IMG/VR virus record: IMGVR_UViG_2585427742_000014
Strand: one strand, 5' to 3'
DNA from: a virus
Taxonomy: Duplodnaviria > Heunggongvirae > Uroviricota > Caudoviricetes
Length of the DNA: 11,352 bases
A model generated the notes under the pieces. It saw nothing but the letters and a program-made list of their open reading frames with translations. It did no database searches and was not told the origin of the DNA. The position numbers were made by a program, and so were the translations under genes. Below, piece after piece: positions 1 to 11,352 of the stretch (its first letter is position 1; each line of letters starts with the position of its first letter).

Positions 1-147
1 ATGGCAAAGCCGATCATCACGCTCAATGGCCTAAAAATCGTCATTATGTTGGGAATGCTGGTCATTATTCTCTGCGGTATCCGTTTTGCCGCCGAGATCA
101 TCGTGCCGTTTATTCTCGCATTATTTATTGCTGTTATATATAACTAA
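1..147 (+). pseudogene. tqsA: 48-codon ORF at the window start; N-terminal fragment of an inner-membrane protein resembling the AI-2 exporter TqsA/YdgG family, apparently cut short at the island junction
   Basis: Own translation [48 protein letters not shown], hydrophobic and TM-like. From memory the first ~45 residues match E. coli TqsA, after which the frame diverges and stops. Unverified recall. Confidence 0.4.
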
Positions 148-211
148 TTTCACTTAACGCATTGATTTAATTAAATGATTTGCACTACAAAAAGTGCCAT
201 AAATCGCAAAA

Positions 212-233
212 TGACTACACCAGTGACTACACC
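212..233. repeat. Tandem direct repeat TGACTACACC x2 (212-221, 224-233); candidate integrase arm-type binding sites near the island end
   Basis: Exact 10-mer repeated with a 2-bp spacer, seen directly. Placement near the presumed att junction fits arm sites of P4-type integrases; function is inferred. Confidence 0.45.
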
Positions 234-3796: not shown

Positions 3797-3961
3797 AGTA
3801 AGAAATTCCTCTTCGACTTAAAAAATCATAACTGGATGTTCATCCAGCTCTGATTATAATCATGATTGCATTTTGTGCAATGATATTGAGTTGTGTTGCA
3901 AATTATGAAATGATGATCCCGATCATGTGTGTCAGTGCACCAAAAAGCCTCATATGCAAAA

Positions 3962-4909: not shown

Positions 4910-4957
4910 ATTTATTTTTACCCCCTCGTTTAAAAAGTTTTGAGTTGTGCCTCCCCT

Positions 4958-5185
4958 TGTCTACCTTATCTACCTTAGTGGCCCTCATGCCAGTAATGGC
5001 GCGGCTTTCAGCGGGGTAGAGTGCTTTTATCCACTATCTACCCCGTGTCTACCTCCCTGTCTGACTCAGGTAAAATCAGGTAGAGAGGGTAGATAGTGGG
5101 TAGACAGTAAAAAAAAGCTATCTACCTAACTTAATGCACTGAATTAAATGTATTTTTCTTTACTCAGGTAGACAGGGTAGACAGC
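4958..5185. repeat. Iteron array with AT-rich segment; putative island replication origin just downstream of the primase gene
   Basis: At least 9 copies of GGTAGA(C/T/G)AG or its complement in both orientations: TCTACCTTA x2 tandem at 4960-4977, CTATCTACC 5035-5043, GTGTCTACC 5045-5053, GGTAGAG 5079-5085, GGGTAGATAG 5088-5097, GGGTAGACAG 5098-5107, GCTATCTACC 5117-5126, GGTAGACAG x2 tandem at 5167-5184. AT-rich stretch at 5107-5160. Confidence 0.7.
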
Positions 5186-5197
5186 AATTACAAAAAA

Positions 5198-6952
5198 TTA
5201 TAAAAACGCGTCGCACTCGTCTGTTGTTATTGCGTTAGTCTGCGTTACTCCCTTAACTTTCCGCGTAATATATTCATGTCCGTAAACTTTCGCGGCTGGC
5301 TTCATAGCCTTGCCAAAGTCATTTACGTTTAGCGGTTTGCTCCTGCCTGCGTACGCCATAAACGCCAGATAGACGCGGTAAAGGCTGTTTCTGGTCGTGT
5401 ACTTCACTGAATCGCCACCGCCGCCCATCATCAGGCCGCGTGCTTCCTCCAGAAAATTCAGGAACTGGCAAAACTCAATAACCGGATCCGTCTGTTGCTT
5501 TATTGCCAGTGCTTCATCACCGTCACGCTGTTCCAGTAGTAAAGCCCGTGCTTTCTCAGAGTCGGTAAAGTTCGCCAGCAATCGGCGGATAATGACAGGG
5601 ATTTCAGCCGCAATCTTTTCCGGTAGCTCCCTGTCTTTTTCGGCCTCACTGACGATATTGTCGAAACGGAAAATCACGCGACGACGTGCCACACCTCCGG
5701 CCCGTTCGGTGAATATCATCGGGTTGTTGTTGGTCGCCAGCACCACCGCCCTGATTACCGCCGTAAAACGCTTTTCATATTTCGGGTTAATTTCCACGGG
5801 GTCACCGCCCGTGATTTTCTTGATGCCCGTTCCTTCGCCTGTATATTTCGGCTGGTCAGCCAGGACGATAAGACGACTCCCGACAACCTGCGCACGTCCA
5901 CCAGCATCATCAAGCGATGTCATTTCAGCGCTTACCGTGTTCTGTTTCCCTGCCAGAAGGCTGGCTATGTGCGTGAATGTACTTTTACCGCTCCCGCCGT
6001 CTCCGGTGGCCTCAATAAACATCTGCCAGTCGTACCGGTTCGCCATAATCATGTACAGCGCGGCACATATACGCATCATCTTGCGCGGGTCTTTTCCGGC
6101 TGCGTGCTTAAGCCATTTATGAAAGTTTGGCGCGTTATCGCGGATGTTCTCCCCTGGTGCTGGTGGCGTGTACTCAATGCCGTTGTTCGTGGTGATCCAG
6201 TTCTCCGGCGTGTGCGGGGAAAATTCCCCCGTTTTCAGGTCAAGCGCACCATTGGCGAACGGCAGCAAATCGCCGGACGGCTCGCCCATTGGTTCGGCAA
6301 TAACTTTTAACGCTTCCACGGCGTTATTGATTACGCGCTTGCTGAAAGTGGCCCTGTGCTCTGAATAGATCGCCACCATTTCGCGGCTAAGTTCCATTGT
6401 GCTGACCGGACACCATACCCCGCCGCGCCATACGTGAACGATTTCACTTTCAGGATGTACGCAAACGCCATCAAAGCGATCGGCAAGCAGCTGCGCGCGC
6501 TCACTGTCCGCCATCTGCGAAAGTTGCGCCTTTTGCTTTACCGGAAGCTCAATGACCAGACCATCAGAAAGATTCTGGCGCTCACGGGCCAGATATTCGC
6601 GCCAGTTCTCCACCTTCTGACCGTGCATACCATCAGGGTAAAAATTTGCGTCCTGAATATCTGCCGCCGCCAGCTTCTGACCAATCTTTTTGGTCTCCAC
6701 TAAATCCAGTTCTCCGGCCTGGTACAGCCTTACGCGCTTTTTCCCATCCGGAACAATTTTCAGCGCATCAAGTTCGGCAAGCTGATTTGGCCCAAGCCAC
6801 ACAGGCGGCACATTATCGCCGGATGCGGGGCCGTCCTGCTCCTGCCACTGTTTTGCATGTGACCACGCATCACTACCCGCGAAAATAATTACCTCTGTGT
6901 CTTTGTGTTTTATTCCGCGTGGTTGTTTTTTTACGTTCGGTGCCAGTTTCAT
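5198..6952 (-). CDS. Primase-helicase (D5_N-like region plus SF3-type P-loop NTPase; phage/plasmid primase, P4 family C-terminal type)
   Basis: 584 aa; Walker A GDGGSGKST, preceded by a D5_N-like segment (FANGALDLKTGEFSPHTPENWITTN). Followed by the iteron origin. Confidence 0.85.
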   Translation of the reverse strand: MKLAPNVKKQPRGIKHKDTEVIIFAGSDAWSHAKQWQEQDGPASGDNVPPVWLGPNQLAELDALKIVPDGKKRVRLYQAGELDLVETKKIGQKLAAADIQDANFYPDGMHGQKVENWREYLARERQNLSDGLVIELPVKQKAQLSQMADSERAQLLADRFDGVCVHPESEIVHVWRGGVWCPVSTMELSREMVAIYSEHRATFSKRVINNAVEALKVIAEPMGEPSGDLLPFANGALDLKTGEFSPHTPENWITTNNGIEYTPPAPGENIRDNAPNFHKWLKHAAGKDPRKMMRICAALYMIMANRYDWQMFIEATGDGGSGKSTFTHIASLLAGKQNTVSAEMTSLDDAGGRAQVVGSRLIVLADQPKYTGEGTGIKKITGGDPVEINPKYEKRFTAVIRAVVLATNNNPMIFTERAGGVARRRVIFRFDNIVSEAEKDRELPEKIAAEIPVIIRRLLANFTDSEKARALLLEQRDGDEALAIKQQTDPVIEFCQFLNFLEEARGLMMGGGGDSVKYTTRNSLYRVYLAFMAYAGRSKPLNVNDFGKAMKPAAKVYGHEYITRKVKGVTQTNAITTDECDAFL

Positions 6953-7924: not shown

Positions 7925-8382
7925 AAGCCTACCCCCTGACGAATACGGGCGACAAAAATCAGATGTGCGTGCGGCAGCTGTGCACGTGCTTCGCGCTCAG
8001 TGGCAGCGGTAACGGTGAATATTGCAATGCTGTCTGTCAGGCACTGCATAAAGCGCCAGACAAAATAAGGGCGTGCGGATACAGCCATGTGAAAGGCTCC
8101 CAGATGAATTTTAAGGAGTCTCGCTACTACGCTGTCAAACATGGTGGCGAGACGTAACAGGGTTGACAGACTGGTCATCTGGAAACCAGCGAGCACAAAG
8201 GCTCCCCCGTTACGCCCCGCCATAATGCGGGTATGGGTAGGTTTACGGACACAAAAAAACCGCTTATCGGATGTGGGCGGCTGTCCGCCAGATGTATTCA
8301 GGCTGTCAAACCCGGTCGCCATGTGGGCGACGGGGGAAGCATACAGCCCCGTGATAATTTTTTGCAAGCGGTTTTTACGCAT
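7921..8382 (-). CDS. Small protein, paralog 1, with a C-terminal motif shared with 8375..8578 (Icd-like/Ash-like small-protein type; start uncertain, alternative ATG at 8088)
   Basis: C-terminus YFVWRF...TAATEREARAQLPHAHLIFVARIRQG parallels the downstream paralog. The ATG at 8382 overlaps the upstream stop (ATGCGTAA) with AGGGG 7 nt upstream; the alternative ATG at 8088 has GGAG 8 nt upstream. Confidence 0.45.
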   Translation of the reverse strand: MRKNRLQKIITGLYASPVAHMATGFDSLNTSGGQPPTSDKRFFCVRKPTHTRIMAGRNGGAFVLAGFQMTSLSTLLRLATMFDSVVARLLKIHLGAFHMAVSARPYFVWRFMQCLTDSIAIFTVTAATEREARAQLPHAHLIFVARIRQGVGL

Positions 8383-8578
8383 GATATGACCCCTGGCGAA
8401 TACGGGCAGCGAATACCATCACGCAGCCAGCCGGAGATTGCTGACGCGCTTCCTGTTCGCTGGTGGCCTCGATGGTAATCACGCGCGGTTGTGCCGTGCT
8501 CAGGGCGATAAAACGCCAGATGTATTTATTCAGGTTGTACGAGTCCCGCCCTTGCGGGTGTCTGGTATAATTTCTCAT
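8375..8578 (-). CDS. Small protein, paralog 2 (67 aa), Icd-like/Ash-like type
   Basis: MRNYTRHPQGRDSYNLNKYIWRF...EATSEQEARQQSPAGCVMVFAARIRQG; GAGG 5 nt upstream of the ATG at 8578. This is the 3' end of the otherwise implausible 382-aa ORF. Family assignment is from memory and unverified. Confidence 0.5.
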   Translation of the reverse strand: MRNYTRHPQGRDSYNLNKYIWRFIALSTAQPRVITIEATSEQEARQQSPAGCVMVFAARIRQGSYHA

Positions 8579-8650
8579 AGCTACCTCGATACTTTCGCTA
8601 TCGTTGGTGGTTAGAAGCCCTGCATGTGTTCCAGCACTGCGGGGCTTTGC

Positions 8651-8755
8651 TGTACATACACCACAATCATTGGTGTGTGTACAGATTAAATTTAAGTGCG
8701 CTACAGTGTCAAGTGTTTTATTTACACACCTTTTGGTGTAATGTATGCACACCTC
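8651..8755. promoter_or_regulatory. Divergent promoter/operator region with inverted repeats built on CACACC / GGTGTG
   Basis: GTACATACACCA (8652-8663) and TGGTGTGTGTAC (8671-8682) form a 12-bp inverted repeat with one mismatch and a 7-bp spacer; further ACACACC / GGTGT / CACACC copies at 8724-8753. Lies between divergent genes starting at 8578 (minus) and 8775 (plus). Confidence 0.45.
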
Positions 8756-8774
8756 AAAATAACCGGACATTCTG

Positions 8775-9080
8775 ATGGCAACAGGAAATATCAACAGCAG
8801 ATCGCAAATGAAAAATATCCGCTTCCCCCATGATGTAATCGAGGAAATGGAAAATTCGAAAACGGAAGGGGAAACAATAGCCGCTTTCGTGATTACAGCC
8901 GTTCGCGGTGAGATCGCCCGCCGCCAGGCAGAAGGAAGCGGAGAAAATCCCCTGGTTTCTTCGCTCGATGCACTGGCGCAGGTGGAAAAAATCGGAGTCA
9001 AAGCAGCCGAGGAGATCGGGCAACTCATCACCGTCGCGCGTGAAGAACTCCAGCGTCGCAAGGCCAAAGAGCAGGAGTGA
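8775..9080 (+). CDS. Ribbon-helix-helix-like DNA-binding protein (101 aa; start uncertain)
   Basis: KNIRFPHDVIEEMENSKTEGETIAAFVITAVRGEIARR fits a beta-strand/helix/helix RHH pattern; non-repetitive charged composition. Weak SD at 8775. Confidence 0.55.
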   Translation: MATGNINSRSQMKNIRFPHDVIEEMENSKTEGETIAAFVITAVRGEIARRQAEGSGENPLVSSLDALAQVEKIGVKAAEEIGQLITVAREELQRRKAKEQE

Positions 9081-9137
9081 CCATCACCAGCGCCGTGGTG
9101 TAAGGTATTACGGCGCATTGCTATGCAGGACAACACA

Positions 9138-9311
9138 ATGACCGATAAAGAATTGACCAAAACATTATCACCGGCACGGAAAAGACGGCGCAGAAAGATA
9201 GAGCATGAATCAGAAAGATTCGCGCCATGTGCTTTTGCCCTTGAGCAATTCCTTAAAGAGTACAGGGAAAAGCGCTCATTGCAGGTATGGCAACGAACTG
9301 AACCAGACTGA
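9138..9311 (+). CDS. Small basic protein (57 aa from the ATG at 9138; the ORF starts at 9123)
   Basis: AGGA 7 nt upstream of the ATG at 9138; contains ARKRRRRK; followed by a strong terminator. Confidence 0.4.
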   Translation: MTDKELTKTLSPARKRRRRKIEHESERFAPCAFALEQFLKEYREKRSLQVWQRTEPD

Positions 9312-9406
9312 TTGCATTGCCCACCAGCCTGATAACGGCTATCATCCCCGTGCTTATGTTTGGGATCACACACACAAACGGCGCAGCGGGTTATCTGTTC
9401 AGAAAG

Positions 9407-9434
9407 GCGGCTCCATTTCGGGGCCGCTTTTTTT
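9407..9434 (+). terminator. Rho-independent terminator of the plus-strand RHH operon
   Basis: 8-bp stem GCGGCTCC / GGGGCCGC (one G-U pair), loop ATTTC, followed by T7 at 9428-9434. Confidence 0.7.
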
Positions 9435-9580
9435 ATACCTGAAAAACCCCAATTTTGTTGTTTTTCAGTTTCACCAGGGCGAACGAATCCCCGCCCACGT
9501 TCTGGCGTATATTCAATCTTCATGGTTATAGCTCTGTGTTCAGATGATTGATGTGTGGCGGCTGCGTGCCGCCAGCGTGA

Positions 9581-9850
9581 TTAATGAACTGCCTTGCAGC
9601 TATCCTTCCAGGCCAGAACCTCGGATAAAGACCAGCCAACGGAACGACCGCCAAGTTTACGACGTGATGGGAATTGTCCGGCCTTTTCCAGGCGGTAGCG
9701 ACACGTACGGCTAAGGCCGGTTAGTTTTTCGCATTCTTTTTCACGTATAAACCGATCAGTGCTTAACACTATTGCCCCCCTTTCGTTTCTTAAAGAGTCA
9801 TCAGGTGTCTTATTGTGTCGTATTGTTCCCGCTAGAGTGATGAATGGCAA
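9581..9850 (-). CDS. alpA: AlpA-family phage transcriptional regulator (MerR-like HTH)
   Basis: 89 aa; EKLTGLSRTCRYRLEKAGQFPSRRKLGGRSVGWSLSEVLAW matches the AlpA / CP4-57 regulatory protein signature as recalled; adjacent to the integrase. Confidence 0.85.
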   Translation of the reverse strand: MPFITLAGTIRHNKTPDDSLRNERGAIVLSTDRFIREKECEKLTGLSRTCRYRLEKAGQFPSRRKLGGRSVGWSLSEVLAWKDSCKAVH

Positions 9851-9920
9851 ATACTGAGGATATATGATTTACAGAAAATGAAACAGTAAGAATAAAATCT
9901 TTTAAATTCATGTTAATACA

Positions 9921-9951
9921 AAGGCATAAAATATTGTTCCATGCCTTTTTT
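9921..9951. terminator. Terminator-like hairpin (AAGGCAT / ATGCCTT stem, 13-nt loop, T-tract on the plus side) between int and alpA
   Basis: Seen directly. The T-tract is on the plus strand although the flanking genes are on the minus strand, so it may be a weak or bidirectional terminator for int, or a regulatory hairpin. Confidence 0.35.
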
Positions 9952-10040
9952 CTCGCTCTTTAAAGAGTGATTCGCTAGTGTACAAAAAACCAGTAACACA
10001 TTAAAAATCAGCTACTTATAAATCCGTACGCTTTTTCGCC

Positions 10041-10117
10041 TCTTGTTCGTAGTTGTTCCACATTGTTGCTCATTGTTGCACGTTGTATCTGTTCGCATAT
10101 CCAGTATGCGCATACTG
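10041..10117. promoter_or_regulatory. 10-bp phased TTGTT(G/C) repeats (10044-10097) followed by a perfect 16-bp palindrome CAGTATGCGCATACTG (10102-10117) at the int 3' flank
   Basis: CATTGTTGC repeated exactly at 10062 and 10072, with related copies at a 10-bp period; the palindrome was read directly. Confidence 0.45.
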
Positions 10118-10134
10118 AAAAAACACGAAAAAAA

Positions 10135-11352
10135 TTATTTTCTTCTGGCTACGGGTAGCGTGGTTACGTTTTCATGTGTTCCCGCCAGTATCCCTAACCG
10201 CTCCGTCCACATATCCAGCGCATTGCGTTTCGCATCCAGATAACGGGAATGATTATAAACTCGCTGCATTCCTGGCATCTGGTGGCCTGTAAGCTGCTCC
10301 ACGACATGCGGATCAACGCCTAAATCGTTCAGCATGGTTGTAAAGGTGCGCCGGATGTCATGCAGTGACCAGTGAGGGTGATTAAGCCTCCTGTGCGCTA
10401 ATCTTCCATACTGCGATACGCTGGCCTCCTGTTTCACTTCCCCCAGCAATAAGCCCGTGTGCCTGTTCTGCTCCACCAGCTGCGTGACGAACGGCAGGAT
10501 CGCTTCCGGTATGGGCCGGAATATTGCGACCTTCGTTTTGCTGTGCTCCTTCGGAACGGTCCATAGCATTTCCGTAAAATCCCACTCCCCGATCTCCGAT
10601 AACCTCAGTTCTACCGTTCTGGCTCCGAAGACAATCAGGAGGCGGATTAACGCGACGTAGTAAGGGGAGAATATTTTTTTGTCCAGTGCCTGCAATAATT
10701 CGCCAAGTTCTTTGTTACTTAAGACACGTTCGCTTATATCCGGTTTTTTCCCAACGTCCGCCACGTTCAGATCGTCCAGAACGTTGCTGATTGCATAGCG
10801 CCGCCTACGGCAGAACTTAAGCGCCTGTTTGCACGCCTGTAGCACGAATCCGGCAGTAACAGGCGTTCGCTTTGCCACCTGGTCAAAACAGGCCAGCCAG
10901 TGCCGTAGCTCGCATTTATCCAGCGGCATAGCACCAATCTGCTGTATTACGTGATTATTAAGTCGCCTTTTCAGGGCGATATAATCCACGCGGTTTTCCT
11001 TTACGTAATACTCAAGCCAGTAGGTGAGCGCATCGCCAACCGTTACGGGCTTTAACGCTTCCTGTACGGTGTAATTCATCTCATGACGTGGATTTTTCCC
11101 CTCAGCCAGCCATGTGCGACACTGTGCGGCTTTTTCCCTGGCTGCTTTCAGGCTCAGATCAGGATAACTTCCCAGCTTAATGCGTTCGGGTCGTGTCTCC
11201 CTTCCCGTTCCGGCCCTGTATGTGAAATACCAGGTCAATTTCCCTGATGTTAAATATTTCACGCTCAGGTTTCCGCCATCACTATAAAACGTGTTTTTCT
11301 CCGCTGGCTTACCATGAAGTTTCCTTAGCAAGGTATCGCTCAGTTTGTTCAT
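10135..11352 (-). CDS. int: Tyrosine site-specific integrase, P4 / CP4-57 type
   Basis: 405 aa; N-terminal arm-binding-like region (LSDTLLRKLHGKPAEKNTFYSDGGNLSVKY), catalytic-region motifs HDIRRT and RVYNHS. The start codon sits at the window edge. Confidence 0.9.
   Translation of the reverse strand: MNKLSDTLLRKLHGKPAEKNTFYSDGGNLSVKYLTSGKLTWYFTYRAGTGRETRPERIKLGSYPDLSLKAAREKAAQCRTWLAEGKNPRHEMNYTVQEALKPVTVGDALTYWLEYYVKENRVDYIALKRRLNNHVIQQIGAMPLDKCELRHWLACFDQVAKRTPVTAGFVLQACKQALKFCRRRRYAISNVLDDLNVADVGKKPDISERVLSNKELGELLQALDKKIFSPYYVALIRLLIVFGARTVELRLSEIGEWDFTEMLWTVPKEHSKTKVAIFRPIPEAILPFVTQLVEQNRHTGLLLGEVKQEASVSQYGRLAHRRLNHPHWSLHDIRRTFTTMLNDLGVDPHVVEQLTGHQMPGMQRVYNHSRYLDAKRNALDMWTERLGILAGTHENVTTLPVARRK

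Follow-up and report, generated by a model that had tools for sequence, protein, structure and literature searches.

In the phage-inducible chromosomal island (PICI) EcCICFT073 of Escherichia coli, overexpression of the small protein AlpA leads to int-dependent excision and replication, and int expression is not raised (PMC6092414). In the same island, a reporter fragment that starts about 30 nt ahead of the int stop and ends within alpA responds to AlpA and to induced helper phages and not to SOS alone; the whole spacer was assayed as one fragment, its cis-elements undissected (PMC6092414). In EcCIMP1, alpA is needed for excision, and helper induction continues at a lower level without it (PMC11773190); in PICMI satellites alpA is again needed for excision, and AlpA has been proposed to be an excisionase (PMC10803314). 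No description of AlpA binding sites in these islands was found in the open literature that we searched. Here we examine the int-alpA spacer of a related island, contained in an 11,352-nt stretch of viral DNA (IMG/VR record IMGVR_UViG_2585427742_000014; the whole stretch is called the window). With somewhat better than even confidence, we propose that this 365-bp spacer is the control region of alpA and that its phased repeats are cooperative AlpA boxes that would link excision to alpA autoregulation. What we report directly are sequence features, their conservation and distribution, and a predicted fold for AlpA, from which we infer both AlpA binding to the boxes and promoter choice; for auto-activation, helper induction, and AlpA-driven excision we draw on the literature on sibling islands.

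The window is an 11.4-kb Gram-negative phage satellite of the EcCICFT073 type, inserted in tqsA. Its gene order is identical to that of EcCICFT073, the two spacers are homologous (67.6% identity), 58 of the 62 AlpA residues are the same, and the two islands share three array positions, a hairpin, and a TTGCCA promoter-like site. The primers of the EcCICFT073 reporter map to the 3' end of int and to alpA (on locus L036), so the whole spacer was included in it. Activation of that reporter by AlpA and induced helper phages (PMC6092414) bears out a suggestion made in a preliminary description of the present DNA, that the int-alpA interval controls alpA. The differences are that EcCICFT073 lies at roxA (ycfD) rather than tqsA, that our element carries the other type of integrase (Int) N terminus with a matching arm motif, and that EcCICFT073 has six distal units and no palindrome where our element has five units and a 16-bp palindrome.

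A second point of comparison is provided by excision factors. Apl of phage 186, Cox of P2, Vis of P4, TorI of KplE1, and RdfS are, like AlpA, small winged-helix proteins, and excision factors bind cooperatively and head to tail to direct repeats about one helical turn apart, with weak affinity for single sites (PMC7498355, PMC3936717, PMC11963761). Apl has five sites at the attachment site (att) and seven between pR and pL (PMC7498355), the cox-boxes of P2 Cox lie at Pe-Pc and attP and also ahead of P_LL in the satellite P4 (PMC3936717), and RdfS binds attP and its own promoter (PMC11963761). Arrays of this kind, taken as at least three direct repeats at 10- to 11-bp spacing, are found in our element both in the spacer, with five units, and in the att arms, with three or four units each. 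The site numbers resemble those of Apl when homologues, with five or six units in the spacer, are included. In contrast, Apl and Cox act as repressors at these promoter arrays, whereas for PICI AlpA the reported effect is activation of its own expression, and the box of this element has its own consensus, nAACAAnnnG, with arrays in both att arms and AlpA binding proposed from sequence. The X1-X1.5-X2 filament of lambda Xis, a protein of the same fold class, is likewise head to tail, phased at 10 bp, and placed beside an Int arm-type site, but lambda Xis has no known transcriptional array and its sites occupy one arm only.

The repeats in the spacer were originally described as five or six TTGTT units at a 10-bp period, and the phasing is real: TTGTT[CG] occurs at 10043, 10053, 10063, and 10073, followed by TTGTA at 10083. 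Five units are thus in phase, and a sixth, TGTTCG at 10091, is off phase and falls outside the array. Four consecutive exact TTGTT at 10-bp spacing occurred in 0 of 1,000 dinucleotide shuffles, in which the longest run was two, and no 5-mer at periods of 9 to 12 passed a run of three in 300 shuffles. On the transcribed strand the units (ATACAACGTG, CAACAATGAG, CAACAATGTG, GAACAACTAC, and GAACAAGAGG) follow the consensus given above at exactly 10-bp spacing. For comparison we used 15 homologues aligned on the transcribed strand (67 to 100% identity) and a set of 43 distinct spacers drawn from E. coli and IMG/VR. Throughout this material the ACAA cores do not change, in contrast to the intervening bases, which vary. 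The number of units is five or six in 39 of the 43 distinct spacers and lower in the remainder, where units have diverged; it varies in 10-bp steps, one six-unit variant having been produced by an exact 10-bp duplication. The distance from the array to a TACAYT hexamer is a fixed 64 bp, also in 39 of the 43. In the window as a whole, ACAA-N6-ACAA pairs number eight against 0.59 expected.

The distribution of these arrays is what connects them to excision. Across a 28.6-kb genomic locus, chains of at least three ACAA at exactly 10 bp are found at exactly three places, the attL arm, the attR arm, and the int-alpA spacer, and all three start ACAACGTG.AACAA; any such chain appeared in only 3 of 500 shuffles. 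A doubled 12-bp motif accompanies the array in both arms, at a distance of about 20 bp. This motif is GTGACTACACC in elements with one type of Int N-terminal (arm-binding) domain and TTAACTACACC in elements with the other, a match that holds in 13 of 13 loci, independently of whether the chromosomal target is tqsA, roxA, or allE, and the differences between the two integrase types are concentrated in residues 1 to 95. The AACAA arm arrays are unchanged between the two groups. Because the doubled motif varies together with the Int N-terminal domain, we conclude from these alignments that it is the integrase arm-type site, and because the AACAA arrays stay constant while the Int type changes, the boxes would be those of another factor, one that does not change, for which AlpA is the simplest candidate. 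The occurrence of the repeats in both att arms suggests that AlpA, besides serving as an excision factor, binds ahead of its own gene. The informative point is this link between the alpA control region and both att arms, through repeats that are probable operator boxes of an excisionase-type AlpA.

AlpA itself is, as modeled, a 62-amino-acid winged-helix protein with an excisionase fold. An AlphaFold2 model (predicted local distance difference test score, 86) consists of a strand, a helix-turn-helix, a wing, and a helix, and its top structural matches in Foldseek are the excisionases 8c3t (GIsul2), 8dgl (RdfS), and 1z4h (TorI), along with Pukovnik Xis. The GIsul2 excisionase superimposes with a template modeling score of 0.83 at 38% identity; MerR-type winged helices and BldC rank after the excisionases. 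By sequence, the only match among solved structures is again 8c3t, the 73-amino-acid GIsul2 excisionase, and a word-index protein search with AlpA returned few homologues. Across the 15 homologues AlpA is 90 to 100% identical, its recognition helix near-invariant and its wing invariant (one substitution in one homologue).

Defining the spacer required a correction to the start of alpA. The preliminary description placed the int stop at 10135, as is correct (the codon occupies 10137-10135), and the alpA start at 9850, which does not stand. PGAP, the annotation pipeline, starts the 62-amino-acid AlpA at GTG 9769 in 15 of the 15 genomes examined, in the longer open reading frame (ORF) the Pfam AlpA domain does not begin until residue 32, and a GGGGGG Shine-Dalgarno sequence precedes the GTG at 9775-9780. 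Homologues also have 10-bp indels within 9770-9850, so this stretch is incompatible with a coding sequence. With the start at GTG 9769 the true int-alpA spacer is 9770-10134; misplacing it by 81 nt had caused a promoter-like site and a second, short set of repeats (9799-9850) to be taken as coding. From the int stop, the spacer reads 5' to 3' as a T-rich tract, the palindrome (in one clade), the array, the TACAYT block, the hairpin, the TTGCCA/[A/C]ACAAT site, ACAAT-type repeats, the Shine-Dalgarno sequence, and the GTG (Table 1).

Table 1. Features of the int-alpA spacer, its flanking genes, and the att arms (window positions unless a locus is named)
Feature	Position	Strand	Basis or remark
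att identity block TGCTGTTAT, at tqsA-fragment junction	129..137	.	Repeated at both element ends; tqsA split in annotated genome
Doubled 12-bp motif ATGACTACACC-A-GTGACTACACC, proposed Int arm-type sites	211..233	+	Co-variation with Int N-terminal domain
attL-arm array AAACAACGTG, GAACAAATAG, ACACAAGAAA	251..280	+	Same repeat type as spacer array
alpA, 62 aa, GTG start	9581..9769	-	Pfam PF05930; PGAP annotation
Proximal repeats GAACAATACG, ACACAATAAG, degenerate ACACCTGATG	9799..9828	-	Overlap P_prox -10 and leader start
P_prox, best sigma-70-like promoter of spacer: TTGCCA, 17 bp, AACAAT	9822..9850	-	Promoter scan
Conserved RNA hairpin, 12-bp stem, 5-nt loop	9920..9948	- (int/alpA sense)	-12.5 kcal/mol as RNA
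Most conserved spacer block, with weak promoter-like site P_dist	9977..10005	-	-35 TTTAAT 10005-10000, -10 TACACT 9982-9977
Distal array, five head-to-tail 10-bp units, proposed cooperative AlpA boxes	10039..10088	-	Repeat scan, conservation
CTG-N10-CAG, LexA-box-like, TACTGGATATGCGAACAGAT	10087..10106	.	Overlaps right half of palindrome
Palindrome CAGTATGCGCATACTG, one clade	10102..10117	.	Present in 10/15 aligned homologues
Conserved T-rich tract TTTTTTTCGTGTTTTTT, directly after int stop	10118..10134	-	Nearly invariant in 15 homologues
int, P4-type tyrosine integrase	10135..11352	-	Pfam Arm-DNA-bind_3 and Phage_integrase; annotation of matching genome
attR-arm array CTACAACGTG, AAACAAGCTG, GAACAAGGAA	L001 15862-15895, ~70-100 nt past window end		Repeat scan

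Two promoter-like sites lie downstream of the distal array. P_prox is the top-scoring site in all 15 homologues: TTGCCA is invariant and is followed by 17 bp and [A/C]ACAAT, a spacing that is preserved on both sides of a 10-bp indel. Its -35 lies 71, 80 to 82, 89 to 91, or 101 bp from the alpA GTG, that is, in steps of about 10 bp among homologues, and the number of ACAAT-type proximal repeats varies in such steps too. P_dist scores lower, and its -10 falls in the same alignment column in 15 of 15 sequences when scanned with a sigma-70 matrix. A promoter scan of the antisense strand gave only AT-rich matches with 19-bp spacers.

Between the two sites is a hairpin, whose arms AAAGGCAT and ATGCCTTT (9920-9927 and 9941-9948) lie within a few bases of where one had been noted. 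It is kept on the sense strand in 15 of 15 homologues, at -9.8 to -13.8 kcal/mol. Four A-to-G changes give G.U pairs and weaken only the antisense fold, and one stem pair runs through A-U, G.U, and G-C across homologues, a compensated series. Conservation was assessed by folding each sequence separately; counting pairs by alignment column gives too low a value, five sequences being shifted by one column. The tail that follows is UUUGUAUU in most variants and ACUGCAUC, which is not U-rich, in two, a consensus scan did not list the hairpin, and an Rfam scan of 9500-10300 at E<=1 gave no match. The hairpin is probably a leaky intrinsic terminator or insulator. An insulating role, in line with the earlier idea that the layout of the spacer insulates alpA from int read-through, is plausible, based on its retention in 15 homologues and on the hairpin of related PICIs.

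Those related PICIs, located at fis (L017-L034; Kosakonia, Raoultella, Serratia, Yersinia, and others), contain an additional ORF in the int-alpA interval. Their hairpin is stronger, carries a U-run, and abuts the alpA ATG, with the Shine-Dalgarno sequence inside the 3' arm and often with CGAAC-N5-CGAAC inside the hairpin. Upstream of int, a doubled GTGTAGTC-type motif is present in 14 of 14 loci, and the att arm of 13 holds three or four phased GTTYR units. These related GTTYR att-arm arrays and the alpA-abutting hairpin, recognized in distant loci by looser inspection, are suggestive, and they offer no clean co-variation test.

Together with what is known of sibling islands, we propose a model in which a helper phage, by infection or induction, would trigger the first transcription of alpA. 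AlpA would then fill the long spacer array cooperatively, 64 bp from the conserved block that carries the weak promoter, giving positive autoregulation, and would fill the shorter arrays of the att arms, directing Int toward excision. The hairpin would probably shield alpA from int read-through and from basal transcription that starts upstream. Should the AACAA arrays be AlpA boxes, AlpA would serve as excision factor and at the same time regulate its own gene, which would reconcile its description as a transcription activator (PMC6092414) with its description as an excisionase (PMC10803314). Such a mechanism is standard for excision factors, so the conceptual gain is modest. AlpA is, all the same, the master switch of Gram-negative PICIs, this family occurs in about one-sixth of complete E. 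coli genomes, and the boxes would offer defined, mutable sites for dissecting how helper phages trigger the island.

Several observations weigh against this interpretation. Single boxes are common, with 31 matrix matches of at least 7 bits in the window, so that information would reside only in phased arrays. The distal array lies about 230 to 270 bp upstream of P_prox, the best promoter-like site, and the nearer candidate, P_dist, has a poor -35. Because the proximal repeats overlap the -10 of P_prox, they would suggest repression rather than activation. Insulation by the hairpin would have to work with a tail of only UUUGUAUU, lost in two homologues. Beyond close relatives, no exact phased arrays were found in the int-alpA interval of distant alpA loci (20 species, AlpA 54 to 69% identical). 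The homologues are related by descent, and the co-variation counts are not independent events. Finally, AlpA is assigned to the boxes by exclusion and analogy, and another small conserved island protein could be their ligand.

At the int-proximal end of the spacer, the preliminary description also reported a perfect 16-bp palindrome, and it lies exactly where stated. An element of this kind is rare, with about 0.04 matches expected per window at up to three mismatches, and 40 of its 42 exact matches in IMG/VR are in this same PICI context, the other two being unrelated sequence. It is absent from the EcCICFT073 clade, which has further ACAAC units at that position, and is therefore not needed for the basic circuit of auto-activation and helper induction. 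On this comparison the palindrome is an accessory element of one clade and lies outside the core circuit. Comparison with island gene content was uninformative, the set having one full-length element without the palindrome. We rejected two roles for it, that of a helper-phage operator, as none of the 42 exact IMG/VR matches had a phage operator context, and that of a terminator, as no U-run follows it on either strand.

The LexA-box-like element that overlaps the palindrome was scored with an informal LexA matrix built from SOS boxes, on which known boxes reach 14.5 to 26 bits with one outlier at 7.0. It scores 14.1 bits, where 0.07 matches as good would be expected per window, and its CTG and CAG are conserved in the palindrome clade only; we regard this element as a weak lead. 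A further match is the most conserved block of the spacer, CTGnnTTTTTnTACA (9976-9995 in the window, 2289-2308 in L036), which overlaps the candidate -10. This block scores 14.2 bits here and 17.3 in EcCICFT073, has CAC where LexA needs CAG, and resembles the uvrB SOS box.

Other explanations of these elements can be ranked against AlpA boxes by the same evidence. It is possible, though unlikely, that the array is the entry point of the helper-phage signal, where a helper winged-helix protein such as a helper excisionase nucleates with or instead of AlpA. An alpA reporter of EcCIMP1 is still helper-induced, at a lower level, without alpA, and AlpA-family proteins and helper Xis cross-complement in that island (PMC11773190); P2 Cox activates satellite P4 from cox-boxes near P_LL (PMC3936717), the promoter of an operon with the alpA homologue vis (PMC10111431); and the literature we searched yielded no helper inducer. 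However, scanning the lambda attP region with the PICI box matrix gave only isolated matches to single boxes and no phased array, the known helpers (lambda, phi80, and Kapi1) have dissimilar excisionases, and an island-encoded factor would better account for the occurrence of these boxes in the att arms as well. We give only a small chance to a related scheme in which a helper excisionase-type protein seeds a filament on AlpA boxes, comparable to P2 Cox at P4 P_LL, and so starts the AlpA feedback loop. If true, it would explain helper-specific, SOS-insufficient induction by a single class of cis-element; the att-arm boxes would couple induction to excision, and the LexA-like elements could add an SOS condition. 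The presence of the repeats in both att arms, together with the arm-binding domain of Int, would also fit integrase arm-type sites used for int autoregulation or an extra synaptic contact. We consider this improbable, since it is the adjacent doubled motif and not the AACAA array that tracks the Int N-terminal type, about 1.4 kb separates the spacer array from the att core, and AlpA leaves int expression unchanged in EcCICFT073 (PMC6092414).

The arrays could instead act without a dedicated island protein, through intrinsic DNA curvature or a host nucleoid protein (integration host factor [IHF], Fis, or H-NS), and their AA-rich cores at exact 10-bp phase, in att arms where bending is needed, are what such a mechanism would use. 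We consider this improbable as well, as conservation of the C within ACAA and of the G at unit position 10 implies that the bases themselves are read; by our own reading the units do not fit the IHF consensus WATCAANNNNTTR, and such arrays are found at only three places in 28.6 kb. Least probable of all is a role for AlpA as a processive antiterminator like its Pseudomonas aeruginosa namesake, loading at a promoter-embedded site and reading through the hairpin. The two systems have their name in common, both combine a positive regulator with a hairpin that follows a promoter-like block, and -10-like ACAAT repeats follow the -10 of P_prox here. But P. aeruginosa AlpA has eight helices and an N-terminal ring in the RNA exit channel through which the RNA passes (PMC9371919), while the island protein has 62 residues, has no sequence match to the P. 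aeruginosa AlpA structures, and matches only excisionase 8c3t by sequence and excisionases by fold; the site of the P. aeruginosa protein lies between -35 and -10, and no GGGACG element is present between these hexamers here. There is no useful family relation, and we rejected this model, largely refuted, on protein size, sequence, and fold. The palindrome and the overlapping CTG-N10-CAG, for their part, might be an SOS operator, for LexA or a LexA-like protein, that adds DNA damage control of alpA in one clade. The two spacer matches described above and a far better box upstream of the capsid operon, conserved in EcCICFT073, speak for such control; against it, the matrix is an informal one and the spacer scores are at the bottom of the range of real boxes, the palindrome itself reads CAG...CTG, the wrong orientation for LexA (0.4 bits), the element is absent from EcCICFT073, and sibling alpA reporters are uninduced by mitomycin C without helper phage (PMC6092414, PMC11773190). 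We think it quite unlikely that alpA is controlled in this way.

The box upstream of the capsid operon is an observation in its own right. It occupies 3830-3849 (core CTGGATGTTCATCCAG, 3832-3847) and is a near-perfect CTG-N10-CAG palindrome that closely follows a perfect minus-strand TATAAT and precedes, by about 35 nt, the small ORF at the head of the operon. Its score on the informal LexA matrix is 19.2 bits, compared with 20.6 in EcCICFT073, and it is conserved in the 16 loci retrieved, where only the four innermost nucleotides vary. The element suggests SOS control of the island late operon, comparable to operon I of SaPI; the E. coli PICI literature that we examined makes no mention of one of this type.

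All long ORFs of the window are on the minus strand, and the encoded proteins include the P4-type tyrosine integrase, the AlpA-family protein, a D5-type primase, a single-stranded DNA-binding protein, a lambda-E-type major capsid protein, and a decoration protein. The features by which PICIs of the EcCICFT073 type are recognized, co-oriented int and alpA (PF05930) at one end of an island of roughly 11 kb, a D5-type primase, an ori, and captured capsid genes, are all present. The PGAP start of int lies 12 nt past the window end. E. coli CFSAN067215 carries an identical copy of 9560-10200, and the whole 11.4-kb element splits tqsA in that genome; homologues of the spacer, 67 to 100% identical, were found in 872 of 5,426 complete E. 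coli genomes. One IMG/VR contig (L069) matches the window proteins at 99 to 100%. The gene after alpA, at 8375-9523, differs from the best genomic match (L001 12816-13964): it is a single 382-amino-acid ORF with an Icd-like C terminus in the window, and the CFSAN067215 copy is annotated by PGAP as pseudogene fragments. Directly 3' of the primase gene, 4955-5206 holds several short tandem repeats with periods of 9 to 12, in the position expected for the island replication origin. Between the last ORF and attL, at 552-590 on the plus strand, GTCAC occurs four times, along with GTCGC, at exactly 10 bp. Its minus-strand form, GTGAC, is the 5' half of the Int arm motif of this element, and these repeats could be packaging sites of the cosB type or additional Int sites.

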